DNA of 64,000 bases from the NCBI GenBank assembly GCA_965223425.1, contig OZ245003.1, forward strand, positions 2,016,001-2,080,000, given 5' to 3'. Below the pieces are notes generated by a model, which was given only the letters and a program-made list of their open reading frames with translations, was not told the origin of the DNA and did not search any database. The stretch's first letter is position 1; each line of letters begins with the position of its first letter. Shown here in pieces: positions 13,668-55,524 of the stretch. Origin of the DNA: Nitrosopumilus sp. Its GTDB lineage: Archaea > Thermoproteota > Nitrososphaeria > Nitrososphaerales > Nitrosopumilaceae. The translations under genes were made by a program, and so were the position numbers.

Positions 13668-13835
13668 TTGACAAGGTGGAAAAAAGATGAAACAGAGTTT
13701 CATGTTGCATTATCTTTTGATGGAACAAGTAGTAAGAGATGTCGTGTTCCAAAACCTATAATCGACATGTTAGGCGATCCAAATACCTTAAAATTTGTCA
13801 TTCGTGGTAATACAATTACTGTGACCTCAGATTAA
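13668..13835 (+). CDS. Small AbrB/SpoVT-like DNA-binding protein
   Basis: MTRWKKDETEFHVALSFDGTSSKRCRVPKPIIDMLGDPNTLKFVIRGNTITVTSD. Confidence 0.7.
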   Translation: MTRWKKDETEFHVALSFDGTSSKRCRVPKPIIDMLGDPNTLKFVIRGNTITVTSD

Positions 13836-13847
13836 TTGTGGCTAGGG

Positions 13848-14379
13848 ATTTCTAAAAATCCTGAAATTTCTAAAAATCCTGAAATTTCTAAAAATCCTGA
13901 AATTTCTAAAAATCCTGAAATTTCTAAAAATCCTGAAATTTCTAAAAATCCTGAAATTTCTAAAAATCCTGAAATTTCTAAAAATCCTGAAATTTCTAAA
14001 AATCCTGAAATTTCTAAAAATCCTGAAATTTCTAAAAATCCTGAAATTTCTAAAAATCCTGAAATTTCTAAAAATCCTGAAATTTCTAAAAATCCTGAAA
14101 TTTCTAAAAATCCTGAAATTTCTAAAAATCCTGAAATTTCTAAAAATCCTGAAATTTCTAAAAATCCTGAAATTTCTAAAAATCCTGAAATTTCTAAAAA
14201 TCCTGAAATTTCTAAAAATCCTGAAATTTCTAAAAATCCTGAAATTTCTAAAAATCCTGAAATTTCTAAAAATCCTGAAATTTCTAAAAATCCTGAAATT
14301 TCTAAAAATCCTGAAATTTCTAAAAATCCTGAAATTTCTAAAAATCCTGAAATTTCTAAAAATCCTGAAATTTCTAAAA
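13848..14379. repeat. Perfect 18-bp tandem repeat ATTTCTAAAAATCCTGAA, 29 full copies plus partial
   Basis: Directly visible; no spacers. Confidence 0.97.
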
Positions 14380-14380
14380 T

Positions 14381-15676
14381 TTATGAACTTGGGGCATTTT
14401 TCGTAAATCCGAGAGGTAGTTTCAAACCCTCTAAAAATTCATGATGATTATAATGCTTAACAAAAAAGAAGAAATTAGGATCAACGATACTTAGCTGTCG
14501 TAAATTGGTATCATAGTCAAAAATTGAGGGAGTAATGCCATGATTTTTTTGGTATGTACTAATTCTATTAAGAAAAATAGTTAAAGCACGATCAAATCTT
14601 TTATTATCACGATTTGGGTGAATTTCTTTTATTGCCTTTCTCAAATCATATACTGATAATCCATTTTTAATTTGCTGCACATCAAAATATGCTAAAACAA
14701 CACGTACAAAAAAATATGGCATCCCTAATCCTTGACTTCCATCTTGAGATTGTCTTGGTTTAGCATCTGCAAATGTTTCAAGTGCTCTGTGGAATCTACT
14801 TGCATATGAATTAGTGATTTTAGTAATAGCATTTTGTAGATTATCCTTTGTTAATTTTCTTGGATCTCCAGTTTCAATTATGTGGGCATCATAACAACAT
14901 TCCTTGCATAATTCTTGTAGCATTCCAACATTCCCAAATGATTCTTTGATGAGATCATTTTTAATCTTACTCATATCTATGTTAAGTGATTCCCCACCTA
15001 GCTTGATTATTTCCTGTAAATGTTCTTCTGTCCAAGGTTCTACAGGTAATTCAATTATCCTGTCTTGTAAATCTCCATTATACTGAATTAGTCTATTTCT
15101 TTCTCTCCAAATTCCTAGAATTACTACCCTGACATTAATATCTTGAAATGTTCTTAAATCAAAAGCAAATAATCTTTGTTCTTTCTCTTCTAAGTAATGA
15201 AAATTTTCAAGTATGATGACTTTTTCAGGAAAGTGTTTTTTTATTATCTCTGCTATGTCTTGTGCACCATTAACGTCTATTTGTAAATCAGAATTTGTCT
15301 CTCGTTCATCTGTGGATTTTTCAACCTCCATTCCTGCTTCGGCCAACATGGGAATTTTTACTTTAAAATTAAATTTAGCTTTGGTATTGTCTTCATTTTC
15401 AATTGAGCTACTAGATTGAATTGTAATCTCTAATTTTTTGAGAATGGTTTTGTAAATATCATGTAAATTTATTGTTGGAGAACATTGAACTATAACTTTA
15501 TTTTCCGATATTATATGGGCATTTAGAAGTGTGGTTTTTCCTTGTTTAGATGAGCCATAGACTACAAGTTGCCTTTTTTGGTCAAATGCTTTCTTAAAAC
15601 AGTCATCTATTTCTTGCCTTGACACATATGTTGATAGATCATCATTAATTACTCCAAAAACTTTTTCTAATCTCAC
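14381..15676 (-). CDS. P-loop ATPase (STAND/AAA-like), transposon cargo
   Basis: Walker A GSSKQGKT, Walker B IILENFHY, helical C-terminus. Confidence 0.8.
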   Translation of the reverse strand: MRLEKVFGVINDDLSTYVSRQEIDDCFKKAFDQKRQLVVYGSSKQGKTTLLNAHIISENKVIVQCSPTINLHDIYKTILKKLEITIQSSSSIENEDNTKAKFNFKVKIPMLAEAGMEVEKSTDERETNSDLQIDVNGAQDIAEIIKKHFPEKVIILENFHYLEEKEQRLFAFDLRTFQDINVRVVILGIWRERNRLIQYNGDLQDRIIELPVEPWTEEHLQEIIKLGGESLNIDMSKIKNDLIKESFGNVGMLQELCKECCYDAHIIETGDPRKLTKDNLQNAITKITNSYASRFHRALETFADAKPRQSQDGSQGLGMPYFFVRVVLAYFDVQQIKNGLSVYDLRKAIKEIHPNRDNKRFDRALTIFLNRISTYQKNHGITPSIFDYDTNLRQLSIVDPNFFFFVKHYNHHEFLEGLKLPLGFTKNAPSS

Positions 15677-17593: not shown

Positions 17594-17761
17594 TAATCTG
17601 GATGAAGATTCTGGGGTTTATGTACATTTGGGTTTATTGGTTCTGCGAAGTTATCGGGAGTTATATGTCAATTCCCAAAATGTACAAGCCTCCAAACCGC
17701 AAGATATTCGCTGAAGGCGATAAAGCCAATATCACAGAAATATGCGCCGAACTCTGACCTA

Positions 17762-18907
17762 ATGGATATGGCGGCTACATTCACAAAGATGGCCAATCAT
17801 TGCATCAAGATAGGGTTGAAAGAAGACACTCACAATATGAAGAGGCTGTCCATGTTATGTTATCACGAATTGCGTAACTATGACATTTTATCGTCATACA
17901 AGATATGTGCAATATCAAGAGCTGCAGGCATATTATCAAACAGAAAACAATCAGTCAAACGAGGTGTCAGAATAAGGGACCCAATAGTCAAAAATCCCTT
18001 TATGACAAACTGTTACGGCATAAAACACAACGGTGCACTACTAACAATCCCATACAAGAAGCATAACCCAATCAACATTTTACTCAACGATCACGCCCAA
18101 AAAATCCTGTCTGATCCCGCCCTGACGGTGCGCTCGTTTTCACTGACTGCCCTCAACATCAGTCTTTGTGTTTCAAAAAAAGTACAAGAGATAGAGTGCA
18201 CCAAGAAAGTTGGAATAGACAGAAACCTAAGAAATGTGACGTGTGGGAGCGAGGAAGGGGTGACAGTCTACAAGACAAACAAACTGTTATCCATAAAGGA
18301 GAACACAATACACGCCAGGGCAGGCTTCCACAGAAATGACCGCAGGAAGAAAAATCAGTTCTGCAAGGAAAAACAGAGAAGACTGACTGACAGAGCAAGG
18401 CAGTACATCCACAGAATATCAAAGGATATTGTGGATAATGCCGTCAAAGAAAAGGCTGCAATCGTTCTAGAAAACCTGAAAGGAATTAGAAAACTCTACA
18501 AAAAAGGAAATGGTCAGGGCAACAAGTACAGGCGCAGATTGAACGGGTGGCAATTCTACGAGCTGCAACGCCAAATAGAATACAAAGCCCGATGGGTCGG
18601 GCTCCCGCCAGTCGAATATGTAGACCCAAGAAACACGAGCACGCAGTGTCCGCAATGCGGAAAGAGACTCCAAGAGGACATGCAACAGCATCGTAAACTG
18701 TCGTGTAATAATTGCGGTTTGTTTATGGACAGGGATATTGTCGCTGCCATGAACAACATATCACGCAAGCTGCCCCCCAGGTTTAGGGGCAGTAGAGATG
18801 ACATATGTGAAGCGCAGTCCGGCACTTTTGAGCCGGCGATGACGGAATCCGGCACACCATTGGCAATCCGAATAGTCGATATGTCAAAGTCGAGTTATAG
18901 GGGTTAA
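17762..18907 (+). CDS. tnpB: RNA-guided endonuclease TnpB
   Basis: RuvC-I GIDRN, RuvC-II VLENL, CPQC/CNNC zinc finger, RuvC-III DRD; frame also open upstream (possible CTG start at 17711). Confidence 0.92.
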   Translation: MDMAATFTKMANHCIKIGLKEDTHNMKRLSMLCYHELRNYDILSSYKICAISRAAGILSNRKQSVKRGVRIRDPIVKNPFMTNCYGIKHNGALLTIPYKKHNPINILLNDHAQKILSDPALTVRSFSLTALNISLCVSKKVQEIECTKKVGIDRNLRNVTCGSEEGVTVYKTNKLLSIKENTIHARAGFHRNDRRKKNQFCKEKQRRLTDRARQYIHRISKDIVDNAVKEKAAIVLENLKGIRKLYKKGNGQGNKYRRRLNGWQFYELQRQIEYKARWVGLPPVEYVDPRNTSTQCPQCGKRLQEDMQQHRKLSCNNCGLFMDRDIVAAMNNISRKLPPRFRGSRDDICEAQSGTFEPAMTESGTPLAIRIVDMSKSSYRG

Positions 18908-18929
18908 CTCCCGATAACTTCACAGAACC
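18765..18929 (+). ncRNA. Putative omega-RNA overlapping the tnpB 3' end
   Basis: GC-rich hairpins (CTGCCCC/GGGGCAG, CCGGC/GCCGG) after RuvC-III in the usual omega-RNA position; boundaries inferred. Confidence 0.5.
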
Positions 18930-28609: not shown

Positions 28610-30256
28610 ATAATTCAATAAGACAAAAATAGTTCAATGTCTAACTTTTTTATTTTATAATATGATAGAATCTGATGATTTGAAAATATTTGATAATCAG
28701 GCCCCCTTGATAATAGACTTTATGCATAATTGAATCATAAAAAATTTTTCCGAAAGATTTAGATCCATTTTGATCGCCGCAACAGGTAATGGAATCTTCA
28801 GAACAGACTATACGCAGGCTGCAAAGGGAGCTCAAACAAAAGGACACAGCAATCAAGCAAAAGGACACAGCAATCAAGCAAAAGGACACAGCAATCAAGC
28901 AAAAGGACACAGCAATCAAGCAGAACAACAGAGCAATCAAGCAGAACAACAGAGCAATCAAGCAGAACAACAGAGCAATCAAGCAAAAGGACGCAGCAAT
29001 CAGCAGGCGCGAGAAGACGATTGGCCTGCTGCGCGAGCAGCTGCTGCTGCGCGAGGACAGCCTGTGGGCCGTTACAGATGCAGGCCGCTCTGATACGGAC
29101 ACGTCGCTGCTGCACAGCAGGGAGGTGATCCACGGCATACTGCACAACAGCGCAAAGCTTGCGGGAATTACCTCGTATGACCTTGACCAGTTTGACTACA
29201 TCTGCAACGACTTTGTGGTAGAGTCAAAGAGGCACAACAAAGACGCGCCGCTCTTTTCAGAGGACGAAACACCGGATCCCGGAAACCGCTGCCTGCCTGG
29301 CCGCAGGTCCGTCCTGCTGCTTGCGCTGTTCCGCAGGCGCTCAAACGTGACGCAGGATGCCCTGGGTGTGCTGTTTGATGTTGACCAGTCCACCGTGTGC
29401 AGGTACCTCAAGTTTGCAGATTCCGTGCTGGCAAAGATTCTGCCTACTGCAGACAGGATGGCCCGTCTGGTAAAAAGGGCCGAGACATCAGGGCAGCTAG
29501 AGCAGCTAATGCCGGACAGAACCATCATAATTGACGGCACCGAGGCGGTGCCAAGGCAGCGTCCGCAGGACAAGGATAAAAGAAAAAACACGTACTCTGG
29601 CAAAAAGAAGCGCTTTACGATTAACACCACCATAACAACAAACAGGGCAGGCCTGATACTTGCAGCAGGCAGGTCCTTTGAGGGCGGGACGCACGACCTT
29701 ACCATGATAAGAGAGGATCCGATAGACTGGCAGGTGGTCTAAATCCATGTACAAAAAGGACACGCCCGAAAAGGACAGGATACGGGTACTTGCAGACAAG
29801 GGGTACCAGGGATGCCAATCACTACACGGGAATAGCACTTGAGATGCCGGAAAAAAAGAGGCCGCGGACGGAGCTGACGCAGCAGCAAAAGGACTCGAAC
29901 AAAAGGATCAGCGCCAAGAGGGTAAAGGCGGGGCACGCCATCGGAAGAATAAAGCAGTGGGCGAGGATGACAGACCCGTATGACGGCACGGTAGAGGAGT
30001 TTCACGAGGAGCTGGCTGTGTGTACCGGCCTTGCAAACTTTCAACTGCTGTGGGATGCAAAGAAAAAGCGGCCGTCACTTGGTTATTGACGGCACAGCAC
30101 AGGGTGCATGAGGCACTGCAAGAGTGCGCACGGATTTCTAATTTCTGCGAATTTACAATGATCTTTTGCATCAAAATTAAATAATTTCCTGGACTGGCTT
30201 TGTGTGTCTTGGTAGTGTATGCTGCAGAAAAAATTTGACGGGTCAATTAACCATAT

Positions 30257-31345
30257 GTGAAGGCTCGGAGAAAAGGAATTTTAGATGACACTGGCATCAA
30301 GTCCTTTAAAAAGAAAAAAACAAAGAAACAGATTACCCATGGTTCTGACAAGATCATGTATGTTGGACTAGACGTACACAAGGAGACGATTCAAGTTGCA
30401 GTACTGGATGGCGGCGGGACACTGCAGTCCAACATGAAGATAAAGAACAATCATGCGGAGATCAGGAAAACATTTGCCATGATCCCAAGGGACTCAAAAT
30501 ACGTGCTGGAATCATCATCTGTCTGGTACGGCCTATACCGGTTTCTCACAGATACGCTGGGATTAAATGTAATCGTATCCAATCCGTTTAGCACCAAGGT
30601 AATTGCAACGTCGCTCAAAAAAACAGACAAGGTGGACGCGCAGGCGCTGGCAAATCTATTGAGAGGGGGCTACATTGCACAGTGCCACGTGCCCGACAAT
30701 GACATAGTAGAGCTAAGACACCTTGCAAGACACAGAAACAAACTGGTCAAGACAAGAACAGTCATGAAGAATTCCATACATGGGATACTCTTGCAAAACG
30801 GAATCAAGACAAAATCCGGCGGATTCGGATCCGGCCACGTAAGGGAATTGAGAAAACTGAGGAACTATCGCATAGATTCGTTCCTTGATTCCATAGCGTT
30901 TCTAGACGGGCAGATCTACAAAATGGATGTAAAAACCCGCCGGATAGTCAAAAGGGATCAGAACATCAGTCTGCTGACCACCGTTCCTGGAATAGGGTAT
31001 TATTCTGCGCTTGCAATATATTCGGAGATTGGCAATATCGAAAGATTTTCAGACTCACACAAACTGTGTGCATACGCGGGCATTGTTCCGTCCGTGAGAA
31101 ACTCTGCTGAGACGGTACACCACGGCAGGATAACAAAGAGGGGAAGCCGTATGCTGCGATGGATAGCAGTGGAGGCAATCCAGACCCATACAAGACACGC
31201 GCCTGACAGCGACATTACAAGATTCTACAACCGTCTTGCAAAAAAGAGAGGAAGATCAAAGGCAAAGGTTGCAGCGGCATCAAAGCTGATACGTGTAATA
31301 TATTGGATGCTAAAGGAGAAAAAAGAGTATGTTGCCCAAAAATAA
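30257..31345 (+). CDS. IS110-family DEDD recombinase
   Basis: GLDVH, VLES, KTDKVDA, VPGIG, AYAGIVPSVRNS motifs. Confidence 0.95.
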   Translation: MKARRKGILDDTGIKSFKKKKTKKQITHGSDKIMYVGLDVHKETIQVAVLDGGGTLQSNMKIKNNHAEIRKTFAMIPRDSKYVLESSSVWYGLYRFLTDTLGLNVIVSNPFSTKVIATSLKKTDKVDAQALANLLRGGYIAQCHVPDNDIVELRHLARHRNKLVKTRTVMKNSIHGILLQNGIKTKSGGFGSGHVRELRKLRNYRIDSFLDSIAFLDGQIYKMDVKTRRIVKRDQNISLLTTVPGIGYYSALAIYSEIGNIERFSDSHKLCAYAGIVPSVRNSAETVHHGRITKRGSRMLRWIAVEAIQTHTRHAPDSDITRFYNRLAKKRGRSKAKVAAASKLIRVIYWMLKEKKEYVAQK

Positions 31346-31349
31346 TTTA

Positions 31350-31485
31350 TCACGGTTAGAGTCTGTCTGCGTTTTATGCGTTGAGGTTACACCTCGGGCA
31401 ATTAACTGCGGTTCAATCTAACAAATGGATGAAGAATGGCACTGGGAGTAAGATCCCGAATGGATACTTGTCCGCTCATCTTTTG
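31350..31485 (+). ncRNA. Putative bridge/seek RNA
   Basis: Two stem-capped loops with words matching target (TTTATGCGT, CAATTA) and donor (ATGGATA). Confidence 0.7.
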
Positions 31486-31577
31486 GAATTTGGATCAACC
31501 CTAACGTGAGCCATTCAACACTGTGACAGTTTGCAAGGAATGTTTATAAAGAATTCACATGGATATGCATAAAGTCT

Positions 31578-43975: not shown

Positions 43976-45271
43976 GTGAATTTACTTTCTATTGGTGGTT
44001 CAGATCCTTCATCAGGGGCAGGCATTCAAAGTGATGTCAAAACATTTTCTATGCTTGATGCACATTGCTTAACTGTAATTACTGCAATTACTAGCCAAAA
44101 CACTACAAAGTTTGGTAAGAGTGAGCCAGTCTCACAAAATGCCCTAAAAAACCAACTAGATTCAGTATTGTCAGATTTTAAAATTGATGGAATAAAAATT
44201 GGGATGGTGTATGATTCACAAATCATCAAAACATTACATCATAAATTAAAAAAATTAAAAATTCCCATAGTTGTTGATCCTGTAATAAAATCAACAACAG
44301 GCGGGTCACTAATCAAAAATTCAGCCATCAAAGATTTTCAAAAATTCATCATTCCCCTTGCTGCGGTAATTACGCCAAACAAATTTGAGGCCGAAACTCT
44401 ATCAAAAACCAAAAATAATACAAAAAATTCGCCAAAAAAAATTGCAAAAATAATTCAGAAAATGGGGGCAAAAAACGTAGTAATTACCGGAGTTGATCAA
44501 AAAAATAACCAGATATCAGATTTTGTATTAGAGAAAAACAAAGAATACGTTATTTCCGGAGACAGAGTTCCTAAAACGAACCATGGAAGTGGATGCAACT
44601 ACTCTGCGGCCATACTTTTTGCACTTGTAAAAAAGAAAAACATGCTAGAGTCGATGAAATTTGCAAAACAATTCACTTACAATTCCATAAAAAACGCAAA
44701 AAAGATTGGAAAAGGGGTTGCCATAACAGGTATTCAAGGAGACAGTATCAATTCACACCTATCAGATGCAGTTAACAAATTTGTCGAGATTAAAAATATC
44801 TATAAAAATATTCCAGAATGTCAAACAAATTTTGTAAATTCCAAACAAAAACCAAAATCAATAAAAGACGTTTTAGGTATTTCTGGAAGAATTGTAAAAG
44901 CTGGAAAACAAGTAATGGTTGCAGGCGATTTAAGATATGGAGGCTCAAAACATGTTGCAACAGCATTACTTGCAGTTAATAAAAAATTTCCACAAGTATG
45001 CTCAGCAATAAACCTCAAGTATCAAAATTCCACCATATCAAAAATTAAAAAAACAAAATTAGTTGTTTCGAGTTATGATAGAAGTCAAGAACCCAAAAGT
45101 GTGAAAGGCAAACGTTCCACCATAAAATGGGGAATGAAAAATTCAATTAAAAATTTAAACAAAGCACCTGACATTGTGTTTCACAAAGGAGATTTTGGAA
45201 AGGAGCCCATGATCATAGTTTTCGGCGAGACTCCAAATAGTGTAATCAAAAAAATTTTAAAGATTGTTTGA
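43976..45271 (+). CDS. thiDN: HMP/HMP-P kinase fused to ThiN thiamine-phosphate synthase
   Basis: GGSDPSSGAGIQ, TPNKFEA, HGSGC; C-terminal IPECQTN, GGSKHVA, GKEPM. Confidence 0.93.
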   Translation: MNLLSIGGSDPSSGAGIQSDVKTFSMLDAHCLTVITAITSQNTTKFGKSEPVSQNALKNQLDSVLSDFKIDGIKIGMVYDSQIIKTLHHKLKKLKIPIVVDPVIKSTTGGSLIKNSAIKDFQKFIIPLAAVITPNKFEAETLSKTKNNTKNSPKKIAKIIQKMGAKNVVITGVDQKNNQISDFVLEKNKEYVISGDRVPKTNHGSGCNYSAAILFALVKKKNMLESMKFAKQFTYNSIKNAKKIGKGVAITGIQGDSINSHLSDAVNKFVEIKNIYKNIPECQTNFVNSKQKPKSIKDVLGISGRIVKAGKQVMVAGDLRYGGSKHVATALLAVNKKFPQVCSAINLKYQNSTISKIKKTKLVVSSYDRSQEPKSVKGKRSTIKWGMKNSIKNLNKAPDIVFHKGDFGKEPMIIVFGETPNSVIKKILKIV

Positions 45272-45274
45272 TTC

Positions 45275-46652
45275 CAGTCACCCAGAACAGCATATGCAGT
45301 TAAACTCATGTAAGCCTTGGGTTCTCCCATACGAAATCACCCCTTATCCTACTGCGGACCATTCTCAGTGTGCTTTGCTGAATCAGGATGTTTCTGATTT
45401 GTCTTGCATCTTCTTATACTTTCTTTGCGTCAACTCATGATTCTGTGTGCGGTATTCCTCCATGTTTGTTAGCATGTGCCAGATTATCTCAAGCATCATC
45501 TGCCTTGCAGCTGCTATTCTTGCCTTTTGTTTTCTTCTTCTCTTTGCGATTCTTGAATAAAATGATTCCATCCTTGGATCAAATCGTATCGTGGTGTTTG
45601 CAGCCTCCACCTGCATTGCGCAGCCATGCAGAACCACGTTTTGTTATTCCGCCGCCTCCTTTTTGCGTCTCTCCGCTGTCCCTGTGCGATGGTGCAAGTC
45701 CCGCATATGAGACGAGTTTCTCTGCTGTTGCAAATCTGTTAATGTCAACTATCTCGGATATTATTGTCAGTGCCGTGACATAGCTTATTCCAGGCATTGT
45801 CATGACTAGTCTTGCCCTTTCATCCTCGTTGCTAATTGCAGCAATCTTTGTCTCAAATGTGTCAATCTGTTTTTGATTCATCTCAATGTTTTCAAGATAT
45901 GCGTCCATTGCCATCCTGTCAACTTCTGTCAGACTGATTTCATGCAGCCATCTGATTCCCTTCTGTGAGAATGTCTTTATTGTCGGTTGGGTGTAGTCGT
46001 ATTTTGCAAGTATTGCATAAATCATGTTTTTGTGTTTTGAGACACTGTGTACGCGATTCAGTCTTGTTCTTACCAGACTGCGCAGGTCCCGATAGTATTT
46101 TTCTGGTACAAATGACTCGTACACCATGTCAGATCTTAGCAGGTCTGCCAACACGTCTGAATCGAGCTTGTCGTTTTTGAGTTTTGCCTGTGCTATTATC
46201 TTGGTCTTTGCAGGGTGTGCAAGAACAGTATCAATGCCGTTATCCTCCAGTGTGTCATGCAGTCTAATCCAGTAGTTGGCAGTTGATTCGCACACTGCTT
46301 GCATGTCTTTGCCGTATGTCTTTTTGACGTGTCTGATAAAACCCGTTATTCCACGTGTGGTGTTCTCAAAGCTTGACTGTTCCAGCTTTTTTCTGGTATC
46401 TTTTTTTACTGTTGCAACGCACCTGTTTTTGTGAACGTCAATTCCTATGCTGATCATATTATCACCTCCTTTCTGATCAAATTGCCTGATTCTGCGGAAT
46501 GCTCCCATTCACCATCATCTGTGTGGTATTTTGTTTTCCGCTCACTTTGAGTTAGTCTGTGAAACGCCCTTGTACATGGCAGTAACCCTTCAACTCTCAG
46601 GCCCAACAGTAACGATACATCACAGGATATAGAAAAGATTTCGTATAACGTC
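45275..46652 (-). mobile_element. IS110-family element type B, transposase 46457-45383 with one frameshift near 45605
   Basis: IGIDVH, CEST, KNDKLDS, YAGLAPSHRDSG; TC at both junctions (45273-74, 46651-52). Confidence 0.88.
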
Positions 46653-46776
46653 TGTCAAGTTATCGGGCGTTTAGTCTAAATCTTTTACCTGTAAAGGGTC
46701 GGGACATGGGTTCTGTAACAAATTGGGGACATGAATACGGATCTTCTCTGAATTGAAAATTTTCTCTTTCTCCACG

Positions 46777-46893
46777 TTAACTGTCGGGTGTTTTTGAGGC
46801 TATGATTCCTATTTTGATCAGTTTTGCCTTTAGTTCAGTTGTTGTCATTTTATTTCCCTTCATGGAATTACATGATTGGCATAATAGTTGTTT
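46777..46893 (-). pseudogene. C-terminal fragment of HNH nuclease truncated by IS66
   Basis: KQLLCQSCNSMKGNK. Confidence 0.6.
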
Positions 46894-46894
46894 G

Positions 46895-47367
46895 GTACGT
46901 GTTCACCTGATTTAGCTCAGTTTTACATATATTTTACAATCTCGGCCACATAGCCAATATTCTTGTTCTTCCAAGTGGTGACACACGAGAATAGATTCCC
47001 CATCCATTCCATGGTATCCACAGATCTCAGCCCGCCACGGATCTTTCTGTGCACTACAATCTCGCGCAATCCGCGCTCGGCGGCATTGTTGGTAGGCGGG
47101 ATGCCGGGGTCTGATACGAACCGGAACATGTCAGGCGCCGCCCTGCTCAGCTTTTTCATGAAACGCTCCAATATGGGATTATCCGAATATTTCATGATCA
47201 GCTGCCTTATCCGCCGCAACAGTCTGCAGCAGAGATCCGTTCTGTTTCCGGCCGCACCGCATCCGTCCCTGTACATTCTTTTTAGCACATCCCGTACGCA
47301 CCTGCATTGCGGGTCGTCATATTTGACGCACAGGTCACGTGCCTCGCGCAGTATGTGCGACCAGCAC
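46895..47367 (-). mobile_element. IS66-family remnant (3' end of tnpC)
   Basis: CWSHILRE and PPTNNAAERGLR..RKI motifs; end GTACGTGTTCACC. Confidence 0.8.
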
Positions 47368-48774
47368 TAGCTTGAACACATGATAACCACCTCGTCGTAG
47401 ATGTAGTGATGAATCGACCCCTGTATGCATATGGGCCTTGCGCCCTTGAGCTTGAATGGGGCAGTCCGAGCTGCTGTGTGACTGGGCCTTGCGCCCTGAT
47501 AGGTGTATGCAGCTTCCGATCCGTCAAAGATCCGAAAGGAGGTGATAGAAAGGATGAGCAAAGGAACAATCAGCATAGGAATAGACATTGGAAAGAGAAA
47601 ATGTGACGTATGCGTCATGGACTGGAAGGGAAAGGTTTTGCATACTGGCCAGTATCAAAACACCGTCTCAGATGCAGACAGATTCGCAGAACAGACGGCA
47701 CTCAGGTATTCTGCCAGAAGATGTCAGGCAGCATGCGAGACGACGGGCAACATGTGGAACATCACATACGGCGCCTTTGAGAGACATGGAATCGACATAA
47801 AGCTTGCCAACACCTACAAGATGGCAATAATTGCAAAGACGGGAAAGAAGACAGACAAGATTGACGCACAAAAGATAGCAAGCGTATTGAGGATGGATTC
47901 AATACCAGAGTGTTATGTGCCGTCAGCTGACACAAGAGGAGTCCGGGCCATGGTCAGACAGAGGATCAGGACCGTACAGGACAGGACACGCGTGATAAAC
48001 CGCGTCCACAGCCTGCTTGACAGATACGATGTGAAAATCGATGCCTCTGAGATGTATGCCATAAAGGCCGTAGAACAGATGGAGTCTGCAAGCCTGGGAT
48101 CCGTACATGACGAAATAGTACCGAGTCAGTGTGCCCGGCAGATAAGGAGCCTTACCGAGGAGATAAGACACATGGATGAACACCTGGAAAAGGAGGCATC
48201 GCTAAACGAGGATGCAAAACTTCTTGCCAGCATGACTGGCATGGGAATCTACTCTGCACTGCTGCTTGCCGTCAAGATAGCCGACATTGTCAGATTCGAG
48301 ACCCCAAAGAATCTCGTCTCATGGGCAGGCCTGTGTCCGGCGATACGCCAGTCAGGCGACAAAATCTACATGGGCAGAATCAAAAAGCTTGACACCAACA
48401 GTCTGGTCAACTGGGTCATGTGCGAGGCTGCAAACACGGCGGTAATTCATGATACTAGAATGAAGGCAGTTTACGAGTCTTCCAAGAGAAGACATGCAGG
48501 CAAGCATGCACTTGCCATAGTGACTGTCGCCAACAAGATGATAACCATAGCGTGGCACATACTCAAGACCAGGACACCATACGAGTCCCGAAACGAGGGA
48601 CTGTACAAACGCAAGCTTGCCAAGATGGAAAAGGCACGCCAGAGGTGATTGGTATGTGTCATCCCACCAAATTATCTCTCCAGCGTTAGCTATAAATCTT
48701 GTACCGTACAAGTAGGCACGGATCGGAAATACAACTGGGATGCGTTGCCGCAACACGTCCGGTGGTTAACATAG
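47368..48774 (+). mobile_element. IS110-family element type C
   Basis: TAG at both junctions (47368-70, 48772-74); long structured left end. Confidence 0.8.
47554..48648 (+). CDS. IS110-family DEDD recombinase
   Basis: GIDIG, CETT, KTDKIDA, WAGLCPAIRQSG. Confidence 0.92.
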   Translation: MSKGTISIGIDIGKRKCDVCVMDWKGKVLHTGQYQNTVSDADRFAEQTALRYSARRCQAACETTGNMWNITYGAFERHGIDIKLANTYKMAIIAKTGKKTDKIDAQKIASVLRMDSIPECYVPSADTRGVRAMVRQRIRTVQDRTRVINRVHSLLDRYDVKIDASEMYAIKAVEQMESASLGSVHDEIVPSQCARQIRSLTEEIRHMDEHLEKEASLNEDAKLLASMTGMGIYSALLLAVKIADIVRFETPKNLVSWAGLCPAIRQSGDKIYMGRIKKLDTNSLVNWVMCEAANTAVIHDTRMKAVYESSKRRHAGKHALAIVTVANKMITIAWHILKTRTPYESRNEGLYKRKLAKMEKARQR

Positions 48775-49989
48775 GTGTTGCATAACACGCCTAAAATCTA
48801 CCACGCAGTTTAAACTGACCAACAAACACACATGTTTCTGACCGAAAAAGCTTTAGATCATGACAGCATGCTCAAAGTGTTGACCGACAATGCAAAGTAC
48901 GTCCGGCGGGGTGCAGAGCTGGCAGTACAGTACAACCCTGACTGGAACTGCGAGGTAAGGCAGGCCAACTGCGGCAAGGAGGAGGGGGCACCGTTCCAGT
49001 ATGCAGACACCATGATCATATGACAGCCGCACTGAGAACCGCCCTCGGCGTTCCATTCAGGCAGCTGTCCGGGATGGCAGATAAGATGCTTGAGGGACAC
49101 GACTCGCCGCACCATACCACGCTGTGCAGAAGAATGGAGAAATTTGACATTAGCATTCACGGCAACACCATACACGTTCATGACGCATCCCGGCACGTAA
49201 CCCTGATGGCCGATGCCACCGGACTCAGACAGTGGAACCGCGGAGAATGGATACGCGACAAGTGGAAGGCGGTGGTGTTGCGCAAGGGATATGTCAAGAT
49301 GCACCTGCTGGCAGATGCGGACACCGGCATGATACTTGCTGCAGTAGTCACAGACGACAGAACCGGCGACTCGCCGGTACCGCAGGATCTGCTGGATCAG
49401 GCAGTGGCAGAGCCGTTTGCCAAGGCCGGGAAGGACGATGCGAGAAAGAGGCCAAACATGCTTGCAGACGGAGTCTCTCCGCTTGCCGGTTCGGCAGGCG
49501 GCAAGGAGGAGGAAGAAGAAGAAGAAGTGCCAAGTGCCAGCCTGCTTGCAGACGGCGCATATGCATCCAAGAAAAACATGAATGCGTGCAGGAAGAAGGG
49601 CATCAAGCCGCTTGTGCCACTCAAACCATGCTTTGCTGAGAGCGGCAGGGGCGATGACGGCAAGGAGTGGAACCTGGCCGTGAAAGAGCAGCTTGGGGGC
49701 AGCGCAGACATGCACGTCAAGGGACTGACAGTGGAACAGAAAAAGGAGAACAGAAGATACTGGAAGTCTACTGTAGGGTACGACAAAAGGTGGAGAATAG
49801 AGGTAATCATCTCCGCATTCAAGCGAATGTTCGGAGAGCATCTGTTCTCACGCAAGTGGGAGAGCATGGTAAGAGAGGTAAGGATGAGGATTGCCATGTA
49901 CAACCGGTGGGTGGCAGCAACAATGTAGGGGAGCAGGTGCATGGATCCTGGAATGAACGGGATGTGGTCAGGCCGAGTTATGCAACACA
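48774..49989 (+). mobile_element. IS5-family element, transposase split 48832-49023 / 49020-49928
   Basis: TIRs GTGTTGCATAAC / GTTATGCAACAC; DATG, KMHL, DSP, ADGAY, Y.KRWRIE; CTA flanks after removing IS110 type C. Confidence 0.85.
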
Positions 49990-50004
49990 CTACCGGCTAA
50001 CGGA

Positions 50005-51351
50005 TTAGTCTGTCAGTGACGGATCAGACACCCTTCCCATGAACAGGATGGTGCCGCTCTCGTCGTCCTGTATGATAAAGATGAATGGGTGGTCTGCGGT
50101 AAATTTTGGTGGTGGTGGAGGCATCGACTCCATTCCTATTACTATTGTAGTCACGGCTGCAGCCTCTGTCCCCTCTTCGTTTACGTTCACATATGCGTCC
50201 TGAACCGCCTTTGAGACAAACAGGTTTCTTCCAGATACGTCTGCAATGCCTGAGAGGTCTGCTATTTTTTTCTTAAAAGCATCTGTCATTCCAAGGCTTG
50301 TCAAGCTGGGTTCTAGATCATAATGTGTCTTCATCTCAAACTTTGGAATAGACACTATCACCTCAGATTCTGTCATACCTTGCTGCCATTTCTGCAAGAG
50401 TTTGGTCGAAAGCATCTCCTGTAATCGTTTTATGCCGTCCCTCTCAGAGGGCAGTACCACCAGCATGGAGAGTCTGTCGCCCTTGTAGGGCATCTTTAAC
50501 ACCTGCACGCCATCGCCTTCGGCATAGTTGAATGTTCCACGCACGTTCATAAAGTCAGTCCTGATGCTGTTACTGTTTGTCCAAAAATCCGACTCGCGTG
50601 TATCCTCTGCCGGGAACTGCGTCACCCAAGTTCCCTTAAAGTATATGGCATTTGCCAGAACCATCGCAGTAAGGTAACTTACAGCATCAGGTGCTAACAC
50701 CTTCTTTATCTTGCCGTGCGTTTTCTCAGACGCCCATGCGTTTATCTTCCCTACACCATCGCCCAAAAAATTGACGCGTTCGGCTTTGGCAAGGTACGTC
50801 TTGCGTATTATGTCCATGTATGAGTCATACGGAGAAAACCAGTCGGCAATCCAGACGGAGTTTGCAAGCTCCAGTGTGGCGTGCGGATCATCACGGTTCA
50901 AGGACGGCATAATGTGGGCAGTGGCGTTGTGACGCAGGGCCACGTCTGAGTCAAACCCGAAGACCTGCTGAATCTGCTGTGCCGTGTTTTCACGCGCCCC
51001 CTCGTACAGCATGGAGAATGCCACATACATGCTAAGAGGCGAGAAGAAGATGTTGTCATCATCATTGCCTGATACCTGTCCGTAAAAGTCCATGGCAAAG
51101 TCGTTGTTTGCCATGGCTATGCTTTGCGGGATCTCTGAGGGCTCCCCCTGAAGGCTGAAAGATATGTTATTTGGGATGTCAATGAGTGTTGAAACAAGAG
51201 GGGCCATGTATGTCCCAAAGTCAGACACGTAGACCTGTACAATATGGAGAGAAGGAATGATAATCTTAACTAAGAATTCATTATCAAGCATCATCACAAA
51301 AAAGGCCACTATGGCTACAAATATCAGGATTGTAACATATCTTTTCTTCAT
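50005..51351 (-). CDS. Serpin (serine protease inhibitor) with N-terminal membrane anchor
   Basis: NIFFSPLS, NAIYFKGTW, IPKF, hinge EEGTEAAAVT, FTADHPFIF. Confidence 0.95.
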   Translation of the reverse strand: MKKRYVTILIFVAIVAFFVMMLDNEFLVKIIIPSLHIVQVYVSDFGTYMAPLVSTLIDIPNNISFSLQGEPSEIPQSIAMANNDFAMDFYGQVSGNDDDNIFFSPLSMYVAFSMLYEGARENTAQQIQQVFGFDSDVALRHNATAHIMPSLNRDDPHATLELANSVWIADWFSPYDSYMDIIRKTYLAKAERVNFLGDGVGKINAWASEKTHGKIKKVLAPDAVSYLTAMVLANAIYFKGTWVTQFPAEDTRESDFWTNSNSIRTDFMNVRGTFNYAEGDGVQVLKMPYKGDRLSMLVVLPSERDGIKRLQEMLSTKLLQKWQQGMTESEVIVSIPKFEMKTHYDLEPSLTSLGMTDAFKKKIADLSGIADVSGRNLFVSKAVQDAYVNVNEEGTEAAAVTTIVIGMESMPPPPPKFTADHPFIFIIQDDESGTILFMGRVSDPSLTD

Positions 51352-51364
51352 GAGACTTTATGCG

Positions 51365-52680
51365 TATCCATGTGAATTCTTTATAAACATTCCTTGCAAA
51401 CTGTCACAGTGTTGAATGGCTCACGCTGGGGTTGATCCAAATTCCAAAAGATGAGCGGACAAGTATCCATTCGGGATCTTACTCCCAGTGCCATTCTTCA
51501 TCCATTTGTTAGATTGAACCGCAGTTAATTGCCCGAGGTGTAACCTCAACGCATAAAACGCAGACAGACTCTAACCGTAATAAATTATTTTTGGGCAACA
51601 TACTCTTTTTTCTCCTTTAGCATCCAATATATTACACGTATCAGCTTTGATGCCGCTGCAACCTTTGCCTTTGATCTTCCTCTCTTTTTTGCAAGACGGT
51701 TGCAGAATCTTGTAATGTCGCTGTCAGGCGCGTGTCTTGTATGGGTCTGGATTGCCTCCACTGCTATCCATCGCAGCATACGGCTTCCCCTCTTTGTTAT
51801 CCTGCCGTGGTGTACCGTCTCAGCAGAGTTTCTCACGGACGGAACAATGCCCGCGTATGCACACAGTTTGTGCGAGTCTGAAAATCTTTTGACATTGCCA
51901 ATCTCCGAATATATTGCAAGCGCAGAATAATACCCTATTCCAGGAACGGTGGTCAGCAGACTGATGTTCTGATCCCTTTTGACTATCCGGCGGGTTTTTA
52001 CATCCATTTTGTAGATCTGCCCGTCTAGAAACGCTATGGAATCAAGGAACGAATCTATGCGATAGTTCCTCAGTTTTCTCAATTCCCTTACGTGGCCGGA
52101 TCCGAATCCGCCGGATTTTGTCTTGATTCCGTTTTGCAAGAGTATCCCATGTATGGAATTCTTCATGACTGTTCTTGTCTTGACCAGTTTGTTTCTGTGT
52201 CTTGCAAGGTGTCTTAGCTCTACTATGTCATTGTCGGGCACGTGGCACTGTGCAATGTAGCCCCCTCTCAATAGATTTGCCAGCGCCTGCGCGTCCACCT
52301 TGTCTGTTTTTTTGAGCGACGTTGCAATTACCTTGGTGCTAAACGGATTGGATACGATTACATTTAATCCCAGCGTATCTGTGAGAAACCGGTATAGGCC
52401 GTACCAGACAGATGATGATTCCAGCACGTATTTTGAGTCCCTTGGGATCATGGCAAATGTTTTCCTGATCTCCGCATGATTGTTCTTTATCTTCATGTTG
52501 GACTGCAGTGTCCCGCCGCCATCCAGTACTGCAACTTGAATCGTCTCCTTGTGCACGTCTAGTCCAACATACATGATCTTGTCAGAACCACGGGTAATCT
52601 GTTTCTTTGTTTTTTTCTTTTTAAAGGACTTGATGCCAGTGTCATCTAAAATTCCTTTTCTCCGAGCCTTCACATATGGT
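51365..52680 (-). mobile_element. IS110 (IS1111-type) type A copy 2
   Basis: Near-identical inverted copy of 30250-31565; TA core. Confidence 0.92.
51585..52673 (-). CDS. IS110-family DEDD recombinase
   Basis: Differs from 30257-31345 at only a few residues. Confidence 0.95.
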   Translation of the reverse strand: MKARRKGILDDTGIKSFKKKKTKKQITRGSDKIMYVGLDVHKETIQVAVLDGGGTLQSNMKIKNNHAEIRKTFAMIPRDSKYVLESSSVWYGLYRFLTDTLGLNVIVSNPFSTKVIATSLKKTDKVDAQALANLLRGGYIAQCHVPDNDIVELRHLARHRNKLVKTRTVMKNSIHGILLQNGIKTKSGGFGSGHVRELRKLRNYRIDSFLDSIAFLDGQIYKMDVKTRRIVKRDQNISLLTTVPGIGYYSALAIYSEIGNVKRFSDSHKLCAYAGIVPSVRNSAETVHHGRITKRGSRMLRWIAVEAIQTHTRHAPDSDITRFCNRLAKKRGRSKAKVAAASKLIRVIYWMLKEKKEYVAQK

Positions 52681-54173
52681 TAATTGAATCATAAAAATTT
52701 TTCCGAAAGATTTAGATCCATTTTGATCGCCGCAACAGGTAATGGAATCTTCAGAACAGACTATACGCAGGCTGCAAAGGGAGCTCAAGCAGAAGGACAC
52801 AGCAATCAAGCAAAAGGACACAGCAATCAAGCAAAAGGACACAGCAATCAAGCAGAACAACAGAGCAATCAAGCAGAACAACAGAGCAATCAGGCAAAAG
52901 GACGCAGCAATCAGCAGGCGCGAGAAGACAATTGGCCTGCTGCGCGAGCAGCTGCTGCTGCGCGAGGACGGCCTGTGGGCCGTTACAGATGCAGGCCGCT
53001 CTGATACGGACACGTCGCTGCTGCACATCAGGGAGGTGATCCACGGCATACTGCACAACAGCGCAAAGCTTGCGGGAATTACCTCGTATGACCTTGACCA
53101 GTTTGACTACATCTGCAATGACTTTGTGGCAGAGTCAAAGAGGCACAACAAAGACGCGCCGCTCTTTTCAGAGGACGAAACACCGGATCCCGGAAACCGC
53201 TGCCTGCCTGGCCGCAGATCTGTTCTGCTCATGGCGCTGTTCCGCAAGCGCTCAAACGTGACGCAGGATGCACTGGGAGTGCTGTTTGATGTTGACCAGT
53301 CCACCGTGTGCAGGTACCTCAAGTTCGCAGATTCCGTGCTGGCAGGGATCCTGCCTACTGCAGACAGGATGACCCGTCTGGTAAAAAAGGCCGAGACATC
53401 AGAGCAGCTAGAGCAGCTAATGCCGGACAGAACCATCATAATTGACGGCACCGAGGCGGTGCCAAGGCAGCGTCCGCAGGACAGGGATAAAAGAAAAAAC
53501 ACGTACTCTGGCAAAAAGAAGCGCTTTACGATTAACACCGCCATAACAACAAACAGGGCAGGGCCTGATACCTGCAGCAGGCAGGTCCTTTGAGGGCGGG
53601 ACGCATGACCTTACCATGATAAGAGAGGATCCGACAGACTGGCAGGCGGTCTAAATCCATGTACAAAAAGGACACTCCGGAAAAGGACAGGATACGGGTA
53701 CTTGCAGACAAGGGGTACCAGGGATGCCAATCACTACACGGGAATAGCACTTGAGATGCCGGAAAAAAAGAGGCCGCGGACGGAGCTGACGCAGCAGCAA
53801 AAGGACTCGAACAAAAGGATCAGCGCCAAGAGGGTAAAGGCGGGGCACGCCATCGGAAGAATAAAGCAGTGGGCGAGGATGACAGACCCGTACGACGGCA
53901 CGGTAGAGGAGTTTCGCGAGGAGCTGGCTGTGTGTACCGGCCTTGCGAACTTTCAACTGCTGTGGGATGCAAAGAAAAAGCGGCCGTCACTTGGTTATTG
54001 ACGGCACAGCACAGGGTGCATGAGGCACTGCAAGAGTGCGCACGGGTTTTGAATTTCTGCGAATTTACAATGATCTTTTGCATCAAAATTAAATAATTTT
54101 CTGGACTGGCTTTGTGTGTCTTGGTAGTGTGTGCTGCAGAAAAAATTTGACGGGTCAATTATGCATAAAGTCT

Positions 54174-55208: not shown

Positions 55209-55301
55209 ATGACGCCAAGAGGAGAAAAAGGAAAACAAATATCACTAAAATCAGATTTAATCAGAGTTTCAGATATTCAATACAGGGTACCTGTATCTTG
55301 A
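55209..55301 (+). pseudogene. IS6-like transposase N-terminal stub
   Basis: MTPRGEKGKQISLKSDLIRVSDIQYRV resembles N-termini at 9135 and 13587 and runs into the TIR. Confidence 0.45.
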
Positions 55302-55524
55302 CAGAATCAAGTCCTGGTCGCTTTTGATGATCTAGATAGCTAGTTGTCCAAAAGTGGGCAACACCAGATCCCAGACAGCCCTGCTGTTTGATTTTGGTGA
55401 TCTGGATCGCCTAAATCAACCAGAGCCCGTGCAAAAATCACGGAACATTCAATTGAAATCAGTCAATTTGAACAGCACCGAGTAATATCCTTGAACATAA
55501 ATAATCATCAATCAAATCGGATTT

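Follow-up and report, generated by a model that had tools for sequence, protein, structure and literature searches.

An IS110/IS1111-family element of Nitrosopumilus with a predicted two-loop guide RNA matching IS6-type repeat ends

In a 64,000-nucleotide stretch of Nitrosopumilus sp. DNA (contig OZ245003.1; the whole stretch is called the window below), positions 45326-46653 on the minus strand very probably (about 0.85) constitute an insertion sequence of the IS110/IS1111 family, of which a two-loop guide RNA reads the ends of IS6-type repeats together with the element's own joined ends. The boundaries of the element, its target, the structure of the RNA, and the covariation of the guides with both the flanks and the element ends were established by the comparisons given below. 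According to the available text of PMC11208160 and PMC11187229, RNA-guided site choice has been shown by experiment for the IS110-type protein family. The original prediction for this locus, a bridge RNA programmed against IS6-like ends and possibly including those of a TnpB element, was supported by the flank survey and by guide covariation.

The ends were placed by comparing the window copy (W1) with the second full copy in the genome (W2) and with relatives. Among 16 relatives, conservation dropped sharply outside the left boundary, ..AG|ACGTTATACG.., while at the right boundary, ..GTATGGG|AG, conservation among relatives stopped exactly, the right end being kept as ..GATTTCGTATGGG. The right end (45326..45338, minus strand) is composed of a 3-nt extension (GGG on the transposase strand) and a 10-bp subterminal inverted repeat (45329-45338), which matches perfectly its counterpart at 46637-46646; the left end (46637..46653, minus strand) is composed of this counterpart, a 5-nt extension (46647-46651), and the core CT (46652-46653), so that by the IS1111 convention, with the 2-nt core counted, the left extension is 7 nt and the right one 3 nt. 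The core dinucleotide CT, that is AG on the transposase strand, also lies at the right-end junction (45324..45325, plus strand), and the same dinucleotide was found at both junctions in W1, W2, and the relatives. Adjoining it are the outer bases (G)GGTT of an interrupted IS6-type terminal inverted repeat (45319..45323, plus strand), in which W1 and W2 are alike before diverging, and which read as the right target, AACCC, on the transposase strand. On the other side, the W1/W2 comparison and a repeat survey identified the inner remainder of the interrupted repeat, GTCAAGTTATCGGGCGTT (46654..46671, plus strand), which is the left target on the transposase strand. Further out, 46709..46761 (plus strand) is the end of a different GGTTCTGT-type element with at least five copies in the genome, which truncates the body of the interrupted one and lies outside the IS110 element. 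The non-coding parts of the element measure 194 nt ahead of the transposase gene and 57 nt behind it.

The insertion point was thereby located between bases 4 and 7 of the IS6-type terminal inverted repeat (GGTT|CT|GTCAAG), with a CT core on each side. W2 occupies the same repeat position, in the right repeat of a 1.29-kb TnpB element, and the 8-bp target duplication CAAATCTC of this TnpB host is intact around the composite. W1, W2, and the partial copies all sit in GGTT|CT|GT.AA in one orientation, and no duplication beyond the core was found. As the original prediction would have it, other copies lie in GGTTCTGT-type ends: besides W2, 5/6 left-end junctions in the genome abutted a ..CTGTNAA.. 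repeat remainder and 7/9 right ends were followed by AACC. Copies of the same lineage in two other Nitrosopumilus assemblies were likewise found in GGTTCTGT-type ends. In the contigs of four public runs, no joint across the element, i.e., no empty site, was seen.

IS6 ends typically carry GGTTCTGT. In this genome, the word occurs 233 times against about 81 expected, indicating a repeat family, and the longer words GGTTCTGTGAAG and GGTTCTGTCAAG occur 29 and 13 times, respectively, against 0.3 expected; in the genome repeat survey, unoccupied repeats read GGTTCTGTGAAG.. uninterrupted. The window itself contains an unoccupied TnpB element of 1,291 bp (17639..18929, plus strand; TnpB identified by PF07282 and NF040570 matches) with 24-bp IS6-type repeats, the right one of which matches the target loop perfectly. 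A DDE_Tnp_IS240 / IS6-like transposase is encoded by one element whose ends are of this type; it scored 44.8 bits with PF13610 (cut-off 27), and its best NCBIfam match was NF033587 (IS6) at 111.2 bits, below the cut-off of 125. Adjacent repeat pairs had identical 8-bp flanks in 5/10 cases and 7/8 identity in one more, and the TnpB elements carry 8-bp duplications. The label "IS6-like" for the target repeats is thus supported.

The transposase gene of the element is interrupted. The N-terminal 292 codons of an IS110-family DEDD transposase (45579..46457, minus strand; PF01548, PF02371, NF033542) run into an out-of-frame stop, and the C-terminal 84 codons follow in another frame (45383..45637, minus strand). 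A 2-nt (AT) loss between 45611 and 45612 is common to both full copies and appears again in contigs from runs X1 and X3. The reading frame ends after residue 292, the last 10 residues being out of frame, so the true protein is cut after 282 of about 358 residues. The translation matched PF01548 (N-terminal DEDD/RuvC-like) at E = 6.4e-24 and PF02371 (C-terminal Transposase_20) at E = 3.9e-21, scored 200.4 bits with NF033542, "IS110 family RNA-guided transposase" (cut-off 140; 249 bits for the intact relative L016), and contains an SG motif (GLAPSHRDSG, ..RDSGE..). Its best solved structure in the PDB was the IS621 transposase (E = 6.6e-17), and its best plasmid relatives, annotated as "IS110 family transposase", were at most 38% identical. 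Intact relatives (L015, L016, L017, and L019) are 355-365 aa long. Since both full copies are frameshifted and no intact transposase gene of the window lineage was found in the genome, the element has most likely lost its mobility by now or relies on help in trans.

The 194-nt left non-coding end, just upstream of the DEDD transposase gene, would encode a structured guide RNA (bridge RNA or seekRNA). RNAalifold, the covariance model R1, and pair counts predicted a 131-nt RNA at 46484..46614 (minus strand), upstream of the transposase ATG at 46457, in which one closing stem (46597-46602 with 46484-46489) surrounds a target arm and a donor arm, each with an internal loop. R1 scored 143.4 bits at this place, and RNAalifold gave 28 pairs, 8 of them compensatory, from 15 sequences. 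In 46 matches (39 distinct), aligned by fitting to the model's structure, 95.9% of cells were paired and both sides changed in 19/28 pairs; the observed pairing was reached by 0/500 shuffles, and slid controls were 33-46% paired. The left-end fold emerged from this comparison over relatives; the single sequence of the 214-nt left end folded no better than its shuffles (z = 0.71). A CTCA/TGAG hairpin, part of the original prediction, is possible in the closest relatives only and is broken in the L016 and L019 types; instead, its CUC and a GAG form a stem that covaries. No support was found for a TATA-like box ahead of the RNA, other lineages having a GC-stem hairpin with an A/T loop there. Searching the whole window with Rfam at gathering thresholds returned tRNA only, and searching the RNA region at E up to 10 returned chance-level matches only. 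R1 located the RNA in 20 of 151 family genomes; on the closest relatives carried by plasmids (two Rhizobium, one Salinigranum), it yielded no match with E below 0.6. Flanks were read at 27 loci out of 80 covariance-model matches, with right ends taken only within the 1.5-kb flanks.

The words of the two loops correspond to target and element ends on either side of the core. The 5′ side of the target loop, GGGUUACU (46581..46588, minus strand), complements the core and right target (AG AACCC), fitting AACCC only if one A is bulged out as a 1-nt bulge. The 3′ side, UUUCAC-AG (46555..46564, minus strand), reads in the sense of the left target and core, and is followed by AC, which matches the first two left-end bases, as a handshake-like extension. 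It holds TTCACAGA (46563-46556), which was noticed originally as a guide-like word; it proved to be the real left-target guide, covarying with the flank in relatives, and its reported 8/8 match to the TnpB-element repeat was confirmed. Its partner, which the original prediction left to be found, is the guide at 46581-46588. The window copy's left target differs from the guide by one mismatch (GAC vs. CAC). In the donor loop, the first 5 nt of the 5′ side, AAACAAAAU (46528..46536, minus strand), face left-end bases 2-6. A core-contiguous guide on this side was sought in the window lineage and none was found; the pairing is offset, with 3/5 bases paired in this lineage and 5/5 in several others. 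The 3′ side, GAAUGGG-AG (46502..46510, minus strand), reads in the sense of the right end and core (GTATGGG-AG), with GAATGGGAG (46510-46502) matching the real GTATGGGAG at 8/9 positions.

Covariation was then quantified across relatives in the Nitrosopumilaceae. Over 35 element/flank combinations, the left target was identical to the 3′ side of the target loop at 161/210 positions, a value reached by 0/20,000 shuffles (mean 68.2, maximum 97). The right target agreed with the 5′ side of the same loop at 71/90 positions in 18 elements (shuffled mean 38.6, 0/20,000). Left-end bases 2-6 agreed with the 5′ side of the donor loop at 78/105 positions in 21 elements (shuffled mean 59.3, 0/20,000) and the 2-nt target-guide extension with the first two left-end bases at 47/56 (against 36.9), but these two comparisons are between parts of one element, so shared ancestry inflates their shuffle tests; about seven distinct compensatory states were seen. 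The donor 3′ word is nearly invariant in relatives and hence shows no covariation. Lineages with differing loop words occupied matching flanks (GTAAG, GTATG, CCGGC, TTGAT, GTAGC, TAAGT, TTACC, and others), and the agreement was present on either side of the core. Poor fits were found to the left target in L086 and L089 (2/6 each) and in L034 and L066 (3/6 each), and to the right target in L023 (1/5).

Two other placements of the mobile unit were weighed. In the original anatomy, the element spans 45275-46650 in the site GATTC|TGTCAAG, with GGTGACTGG (45275-45283) as donor end and GGTGAATGG (46513-46505, minus strand) as donor guide. The letters quoted for it do exist (GATTC|CAGTCACC at 45270-45282, ATAACG|TC-TGTCAAG at 46645-46659, and CTTGACAGAATC at 55297-55308), and the joined 12-mer is mirrored at 55297-55308, but W2 and eight partial copies share nothing with 45275-45316, which is flank outside the IS6-type repeat, and every right end stops at ..GTATGGG-AG. 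The copy comparison thus already refutes this anatomy, to which we give next to no weight. Its right junction, cut after 46650, was correct to within 1-2 nt of the core at 46652-46653; at 45274|45275 there is no junction, the element ending at 45326 with its core at 45324-45325. Because the end lies there, the proposed reconstruction GATTCTGTCAAG joins unrelated bases, and the true one is GGTTCTGTCAAG. As GGTGACTGG is not a donor end, its 8/9 match with GGTGAATGG is coincidental, although GGTGAATGG overlaps the real guide GAATGGGAG. The supposed mirror end at 55297..55308 (minus strand) matches GGTTCTGTCAAG at 11/12 bases, which is not chance because GGTTCTGT-type ends form a genome repeat family; it is, on comparison with G000:C1:2010030, an unoccupied end of another such family that begins with GATT, differs after base 12, and is no partner of 45319. 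Nearly as improbable is a mobile unit comprising the whole shared stretch 45317-46671, i.e., the IS110 part with both repeat pieces, and a TT/AA core. W1 and W2 are alike over exactly that span with TT flanks in both, but the outer pieces in W2 belong to the repeat of the TnpB element itself, run on into its interior, and lie within an intact 8-bp duplication; further, conservation among relatives is far lower in the 20 nt outside AG|ACGTT than inside, and the unoccupied repeats are unbroken.

With the 45326-46653 element kept, the left-end fold could still be a mere 5′ leader of the transposase mRNA, serving for example translational control, while the protein picks the site and the word matches arise as by-products of repeated insertion into one repeat family. 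The RNA end lies about 26 nt ahead of the start codon, adjoining a conserved GGAGGTG, and the invariant donor 3′ word offers no covariation test, both of which would suit such a leader. A protein-only reader, however, would not be expected to have differing loop words that track differing flanks on both sides of the core, and the available text of PMC11208160 and PMC11187229 describes experimental proof of RNA-guided site choice for this protein family. We therefore regard the leader explanation as improbable, and prefer the guide RNA.

The element was further compared with IS1111 members. According to the accessible text, their subterminal inverted repeats are 7-17 bp (PMC11208160), usually 11-13 bp (PMC11187229), and almost all members have a non-coding region downstream of the transposase gene, with few exceptions such as ISMtsp17 (PMC11187229). 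Similar to the seekRNA elements ISEc11, ISKpn4, and ISPa11, as far as described in the same text of PMC11187229, the window element has a DEDD transposase with the GL-P----SG motif, perfect subterminal repeats with a 7-nt left extension (one core copy counted) and a 3-nt right extension, a top-strand-complementary guide 5′ of a top-strand-matching guide, and no target duplication. In contrast to these three, it has an archaeal host and a 10-bp repeat instead of the usual 11-13 bp, and unlike most IS1111 members its RNA region lies upstream of the transposase gene (PMC11187229, available text). Judged by guide order, the 10-bp subterminal repeats, and the 7/3-nt extensions, the element would be IS1111-like, yet with its RNA upstream of the transposase gene.

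It shares with IS621, in the portions available of PMC11208160 and PMC11208158, an RNA that lies ahead of the recombinase gene in the left end, two internal loops for target and donor with the CT core read in both, and a 2-nt target-guide extension matching the donor, as in handshake guides. It differs from IS621 in that, with respect to the transposase strand, each loop carries its sense- and antisense-type guides in the opposite order, that the core is AG on this strand, that the subterminal repeat is 10 bp vs. 2-3 bp (PMC11208160, in the portions available), and that one closing stem encloses both arms (PMC11208160, PMC11208158, likewise). In the accessible literature, IS1111-type seekRNAs are reported to have this guide order; in geometric terms, it results from rotating both DNAs of the IS621 arrangement by 180 degrees. 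Among the matches listed in a literature search, none treated archaeal or Nitrosopumilus IS110 bridge-RNA elements, which is no proof of absence in print, and the supplements of PMC11208160 and PMC11187229 may cover archaeal or upstream-RNA IS1111 members.

Taken as a mechanism, the target loop would read GGTT|CT|GTGAA, which makes up the opening 11-12 bases of IS6-type terminal inverted repeats; its 5′ side would pair with the transposase-sense strand of core and right target and its 3′ side with the opposite strand of left target and core. The donor loop would read the element's own joined ends in the same manner. Recombination at the CT core would then place the element between bases 4 and 7 of the repeat in one orientation, with the core as the sole duplication; the RNA is presumably made and bound by the transposase, and the recombination probably proceeds via a circle. 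IS110/IS1111-family elements in bacteria reportedly insert inside the 38-bp terminal inverted repeat of Tn3-family transposons. Like this precedent, the present element is inserted into the terminal inverted repeat of a different transposon family, at one position and in one orientation. In contrast to it, the host is an ammonia-oxidising archaeon, and the target comprises the first 12 bases of IS6-type repeats, among them the repeats of TnpB-only elements.

A wider reading, tentative and rather doubtful as a whole, is that the Nitrosopumilaceae elements represent a distinct archaeal branch of RNA-guided recombinases, in which ends and guide polarity of the IS1111 type go together with a two-loop RNA that is enclosed by a stem and lies upstream. 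One lineage in this genome, that of the window element, would have specialised as a hyperparasite of IS6-type ends, including those mobilising TnpB-only cargo. As two frameshifted copies lie at different sites after the deletion, insertion in this lineage would still be driven by the truncated protein, by recoding, or by a helper in trans.

The element would thus offer a natural example of bridge/seek-RNA targeting in ammonia-oxidising archaea, in which comparative data alone suffice to read all four guide segments, together with the core and an extension of handshake type. The element would combine IS1111-like guide polarity with an upstream RNA gene, a layout that the available literature names merely as an exception, and in it one family of mobile elements would target another at its ends, namely IS6-type repeats, some of them around TnpB-only elements. 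The known mechanism is left unchanged; the worth of the finding lies in cataloguing and comparison, and the covariance model may be used for annotation.

The IS110-family transposase gene on the minus strand (ATG at 46457) encodes a protein with PF01548 and PF02371, which scored 200.4 bits against NF033542, 'IS110 family RNA-guided transposase'. The window corresponds to C1:2016001-2080000 of a genome of 2.64 Mb in two contigs. Searching this genome revealed one further full-length copy, W2 (C1:785183-786537, on the same contig), which differs from the window copy, W1, at 12 of 1,355 positions, together with about ten partial copies. The closest named relatives of the W1 element are in Nitrosopumilus and Nitrosopumilaceae assemblies, and the adjoining ThiDN-type gene is consistent with an archaeal host. 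Insertion sequences are dense across the window. Another IS110-family element with a 362-aa gene is present as two inverted, 99% alike copies of 1,351 bp (30227-31577 and 51353-52703) that lie 19.8 kb apart, and a third IS110-family lineage (381 aa) occupies 47503-48648. The stretch 46000-54000 has a G+C content of 46-53% vs. about 36% in the rest of the window, and contains IS fragments (IS66-like, DDE_Tnp_1, DDE_Tnp_4) and a serpin gene at 50005-51351. Further, a long tandem array at 13704-14440 (period 9/18 nt, 53 register copies) was found within the ORF 13836-14444.

Every sequence string quoted in the original prediction was found in the window, and the element boundaries were then redrawn. 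The likeness between W1 and W2 extends over 45317-46671, and 45275-45316 resembles no other sequence in the genome, indicating that 45274|45275, the predicted left junction, is not a junction; this also removes the basis for GGTGACTGG as donor end and for the reconstructed 12-mer GATTCTGTCAAG. When the left ends of sixteen relatives (loci L013-L038) were aligned, strong conservation was observed from ..ACGTTATACGAAATC.. inward, while the 20 nt outside were poorly conserved, with a constant AG between the two zones; the relatives' right ends were conserved to ..GATTTCGTATGGG, beyond which an AG precedes variable sequence. These conservation limits and the AG at both ends place the core CT at 45324-45325 and 46652-46653 (plus strand). 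The element thus spans 45326-46651, or 45326-46653 counting one core copy; near its ends, 45329-45338 and 46637-46646 form a perfect subterminal inverted repeat of 10 bp. The W1/W2 likeness continues beyond the element ends because both copies occupy the same kind of sequence. Two related loci, L038 and L063, have lost the outermost left-end sequence and carry in its place a right end in reverse complement (GGTTCTCCC ahead of the subterminal repeat), which suggests recombination between subterminal repeats. A miniature derivative (C1:1142832-1143057), with neither RNA nor gene, fuses a left-end segment of about 67 nt to 160 nt from the right end; the same miniature form, with the joint 45476 to 46599, was found on a contig of the public sequencing run X7, labelled as another organism.

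Joining the flanks produced a repeat beginning GGTTCTGT. This word occurs 233 times in the genome vs. about 81 expected, GGTTCTGTGAAG 29 times and GGTTCTGTCAAG 13 times vs. 0.3 expected for each. Most GGTTCTGTGAAG copies belong to elements of 1,291 bp, as their 24-bp terminal inverted repeats; one such element lies at 17639-18929. The sole gene of these elements encodes a 381-aa TnpB (PF07282; NF040570, 119.4 bits). Identical 8-bp flanks were found in five of ten adjacent repeat pairs, and in one more the flanks agreed at 7/8 positions. These TnpB-only elements (about 29 repeat copies on C1) have 8-bp target duplications and ends of IS6 type, not of IS200/IS605 type, and resemble cargo that an IS6-like transposase would mobilise in trans. 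The label 'IS6-like' is fair, since a 3-kb element (C1:915423-918405) whose ends are of this type encodes a DDE_Tnp_IS240/IS6-like transposase. Beside this transposase lies a 446-aa ORF which, judged by eye, resembles a DNA methyltransferase extended by an HNH-like tail.

W2 lies in the right repeat of the TnpB element starting at C1:783913. The 8-bp duplication CAAATCTC of this host element is intact around the composite, indicating insertion between repeat bases 4 and 7 with only CT added. W1 occupies the same repeat position in a variant repeat (..CT|GTCAAG..), and the body of the repeat element it interrupts is cut at 46709 by another GGTTCTGT-type element. Throughout the genome, five of six left-end junctions adjoin the ..CTGTNAA.. 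repeat remainder, and of nine right ends that carry the full end word, seven continue with AACC. Four of five occupied AACCC sites continue with AA (TTGGGTT on the other strand; C1 right-end junctions 2061326, 786528, 1143048, and 1926091); this stretch is flank outside the IS6-type repeat, and no identifiable guide explains it. The mirror end originally proposed at 55297-55308 does resemble the true reconstruction (11/12), but it diverges after base 12 and so is not a partner end; it is the unoccupied end of another repeat family and resembles C1:2010030.

The guide RNA was predicted at 46484-46614 on the minus strand. RNAalifold folding of 15 left ends gave two arms of one design, each with a basal stem leading through an internal loop to a hairpin, inside a closing stem (46484-46489 paired with 46597-46602); 8 of 28 pairs had compensatory changes. 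A covariance model built from this alignment, R1, matched in 20 of 151 family genomes, a total that includes the window's genome and one unpublished genome that enters this count only, and found no match in the 9 other genomes searched of the window's own genus. Among the 46 matches (39 distinct), 95.9% of cells were paired and 19/28 pairs showed both-side changes, in an alignment that was fitted to R1 itself and thus favours the predicted structure; none of 500 shuffles reached these values, and slid controls were 33-46% paired. Related elements of the L016 and L019 types break the CTCA/TGAG hairpin of the original prediction, and its CUC instead pairs with GAG in the covarying basal stem. 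No Rfam family matched the predicted RNA.

The guides were read in the 46 R1 matches, 39 of which had a locatable left end (L013, L015, L022, L038, L063, L080, and the second hit in L068 were dropped for lacking one). When the 6 nt of flank adjoining the core were set against the 6 nt that precede AG on the 3′ side of the target loop, which is the first of the two loops, 161/210 positions agreed over 35 distinct element/flank combinations, whereas shuffled pairings averaged 68.2 with a maximum of 97, and 0/20,000 reached the observed value. The words vary widely by lineage (TTCAC, TTGAC, TTGAT, GTAAG, GTATG, CCGGC, GTAGC, TAAGT, TTACC, and others), and the guide-like word TTCACAGA singled out earlier proved to be the left-target guide. 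In the left flank of L016 (1230-1500), a partial copy of its own left end stops exactly at the guide-coding word ..ACCGGC-AG, which looks like an insertion into the guide-coding DNA of another copy, a half-site self-match. On its 5′ side, the target loop reads as the reverse complement of the core plus right flank, agreeing at 71/90 positions in the 18 elements with a right end inside the locus, when a 1-nt bulge was allowed and the ambiguous L068 dropped (shuffles 38.6, 0/20,000). In W1, this right-target guide, GGGUUACU (46581-46588), faces AG-AACCC with the A bulged.

In the second, donor loop, the guide GAAUGGGAG on the 3′ side (46502-46510) is a repeat of the right end together with the core (GTATGGGAG); since it hardly varies among relatives, the result is a sequence match and not covariation. 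On the 5′ side of this loop, nucleotides 1-5 pair with left-end bases 2-6 at 78/105 positions over 21 combinations, vs. 59.3 in shuffles (0/20,000), with about seven distinct compensatory states. Beyond its core, the target guide continues for two bases that agree with left-end bases 1 and 2 (47/56 vs. 36.9). Both of these results are inflated by common descent because each test compares parts of one element. In the W1 lineage the donor left-end pairing is 3/5 only.

The transposases of intact relatives are 355-365 aa long. By comparison, an ATG codon in both W1 and W2 has lost its AT (between 45611 and 45612), and their reading frame stops ten codons later. The AT is kept in all four partial genome copies that cover the site and in 7 of 10 copies from relatives; in the remaining three (L014, L028, and L029, from a further named Nitrosopumilus assembly), different indels affect this very position. 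Possible explanations for the coinciding indels are a hot spot of mutation, recoding, or an artefact of assembly. Contigs of the public runs X1 and X3, which may be the source sample, reproduced the deleted form without difference. As the deletion is common to copies at two sites, it would either predate the last move or have spread through gene conversion. No other gene of the W1 lineage was found in the genome, and the IS110-family proteins outside the lineage reach at most 37% identity.

In IS621, the 3′ side of the bridge RNA loops complements the core plus right target or right donor (PMC11208160). The guide order in the W1 element is the reverse of this and exactly that of the IS1111-type seekRNAs, for which Siddiquee et al. 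report a reversed order (PMC11187229). The same authors describe a GL-P----SG motif for IS1111, along with subterminal repeats whose extensions are 7 and 3 nt long. W1 has all of these features, in the form of the 10-bp repeat, the extensions of 5+2 nt and 3 nt, and GLAPSHRDSG. However, the W1 RNA lies upstream of the gene, a position which that paper lists for IS1111 members only as an exception (PMC11187229). Geometrically, the arrangement equals that of IS621 with both DNAs rotated, the core then reading CT, and, viewed this way, the 2-nt extension is the counterpart of the handshake guide described by Hiraizumi et al. (PMC11208158). The best plasmid relatives of the W1 transposase are unnamed elements with 38% identity or less, and R1 found no match on the best plasmid-borne relatives.

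On sequence grounds, W1 is an RNA-guided IS110/IS1111-family element with a predicted RNA, and belongs to a known kind. The original interpretation, a bridge RNA programmed against IS6-like ends, is supported, with a corrected anatomy. What is uncommon is the layout, which combines IS1111-like ends and polarity with an upstream RNA; the host is an archaeon, and the target is the end of another transposon family.
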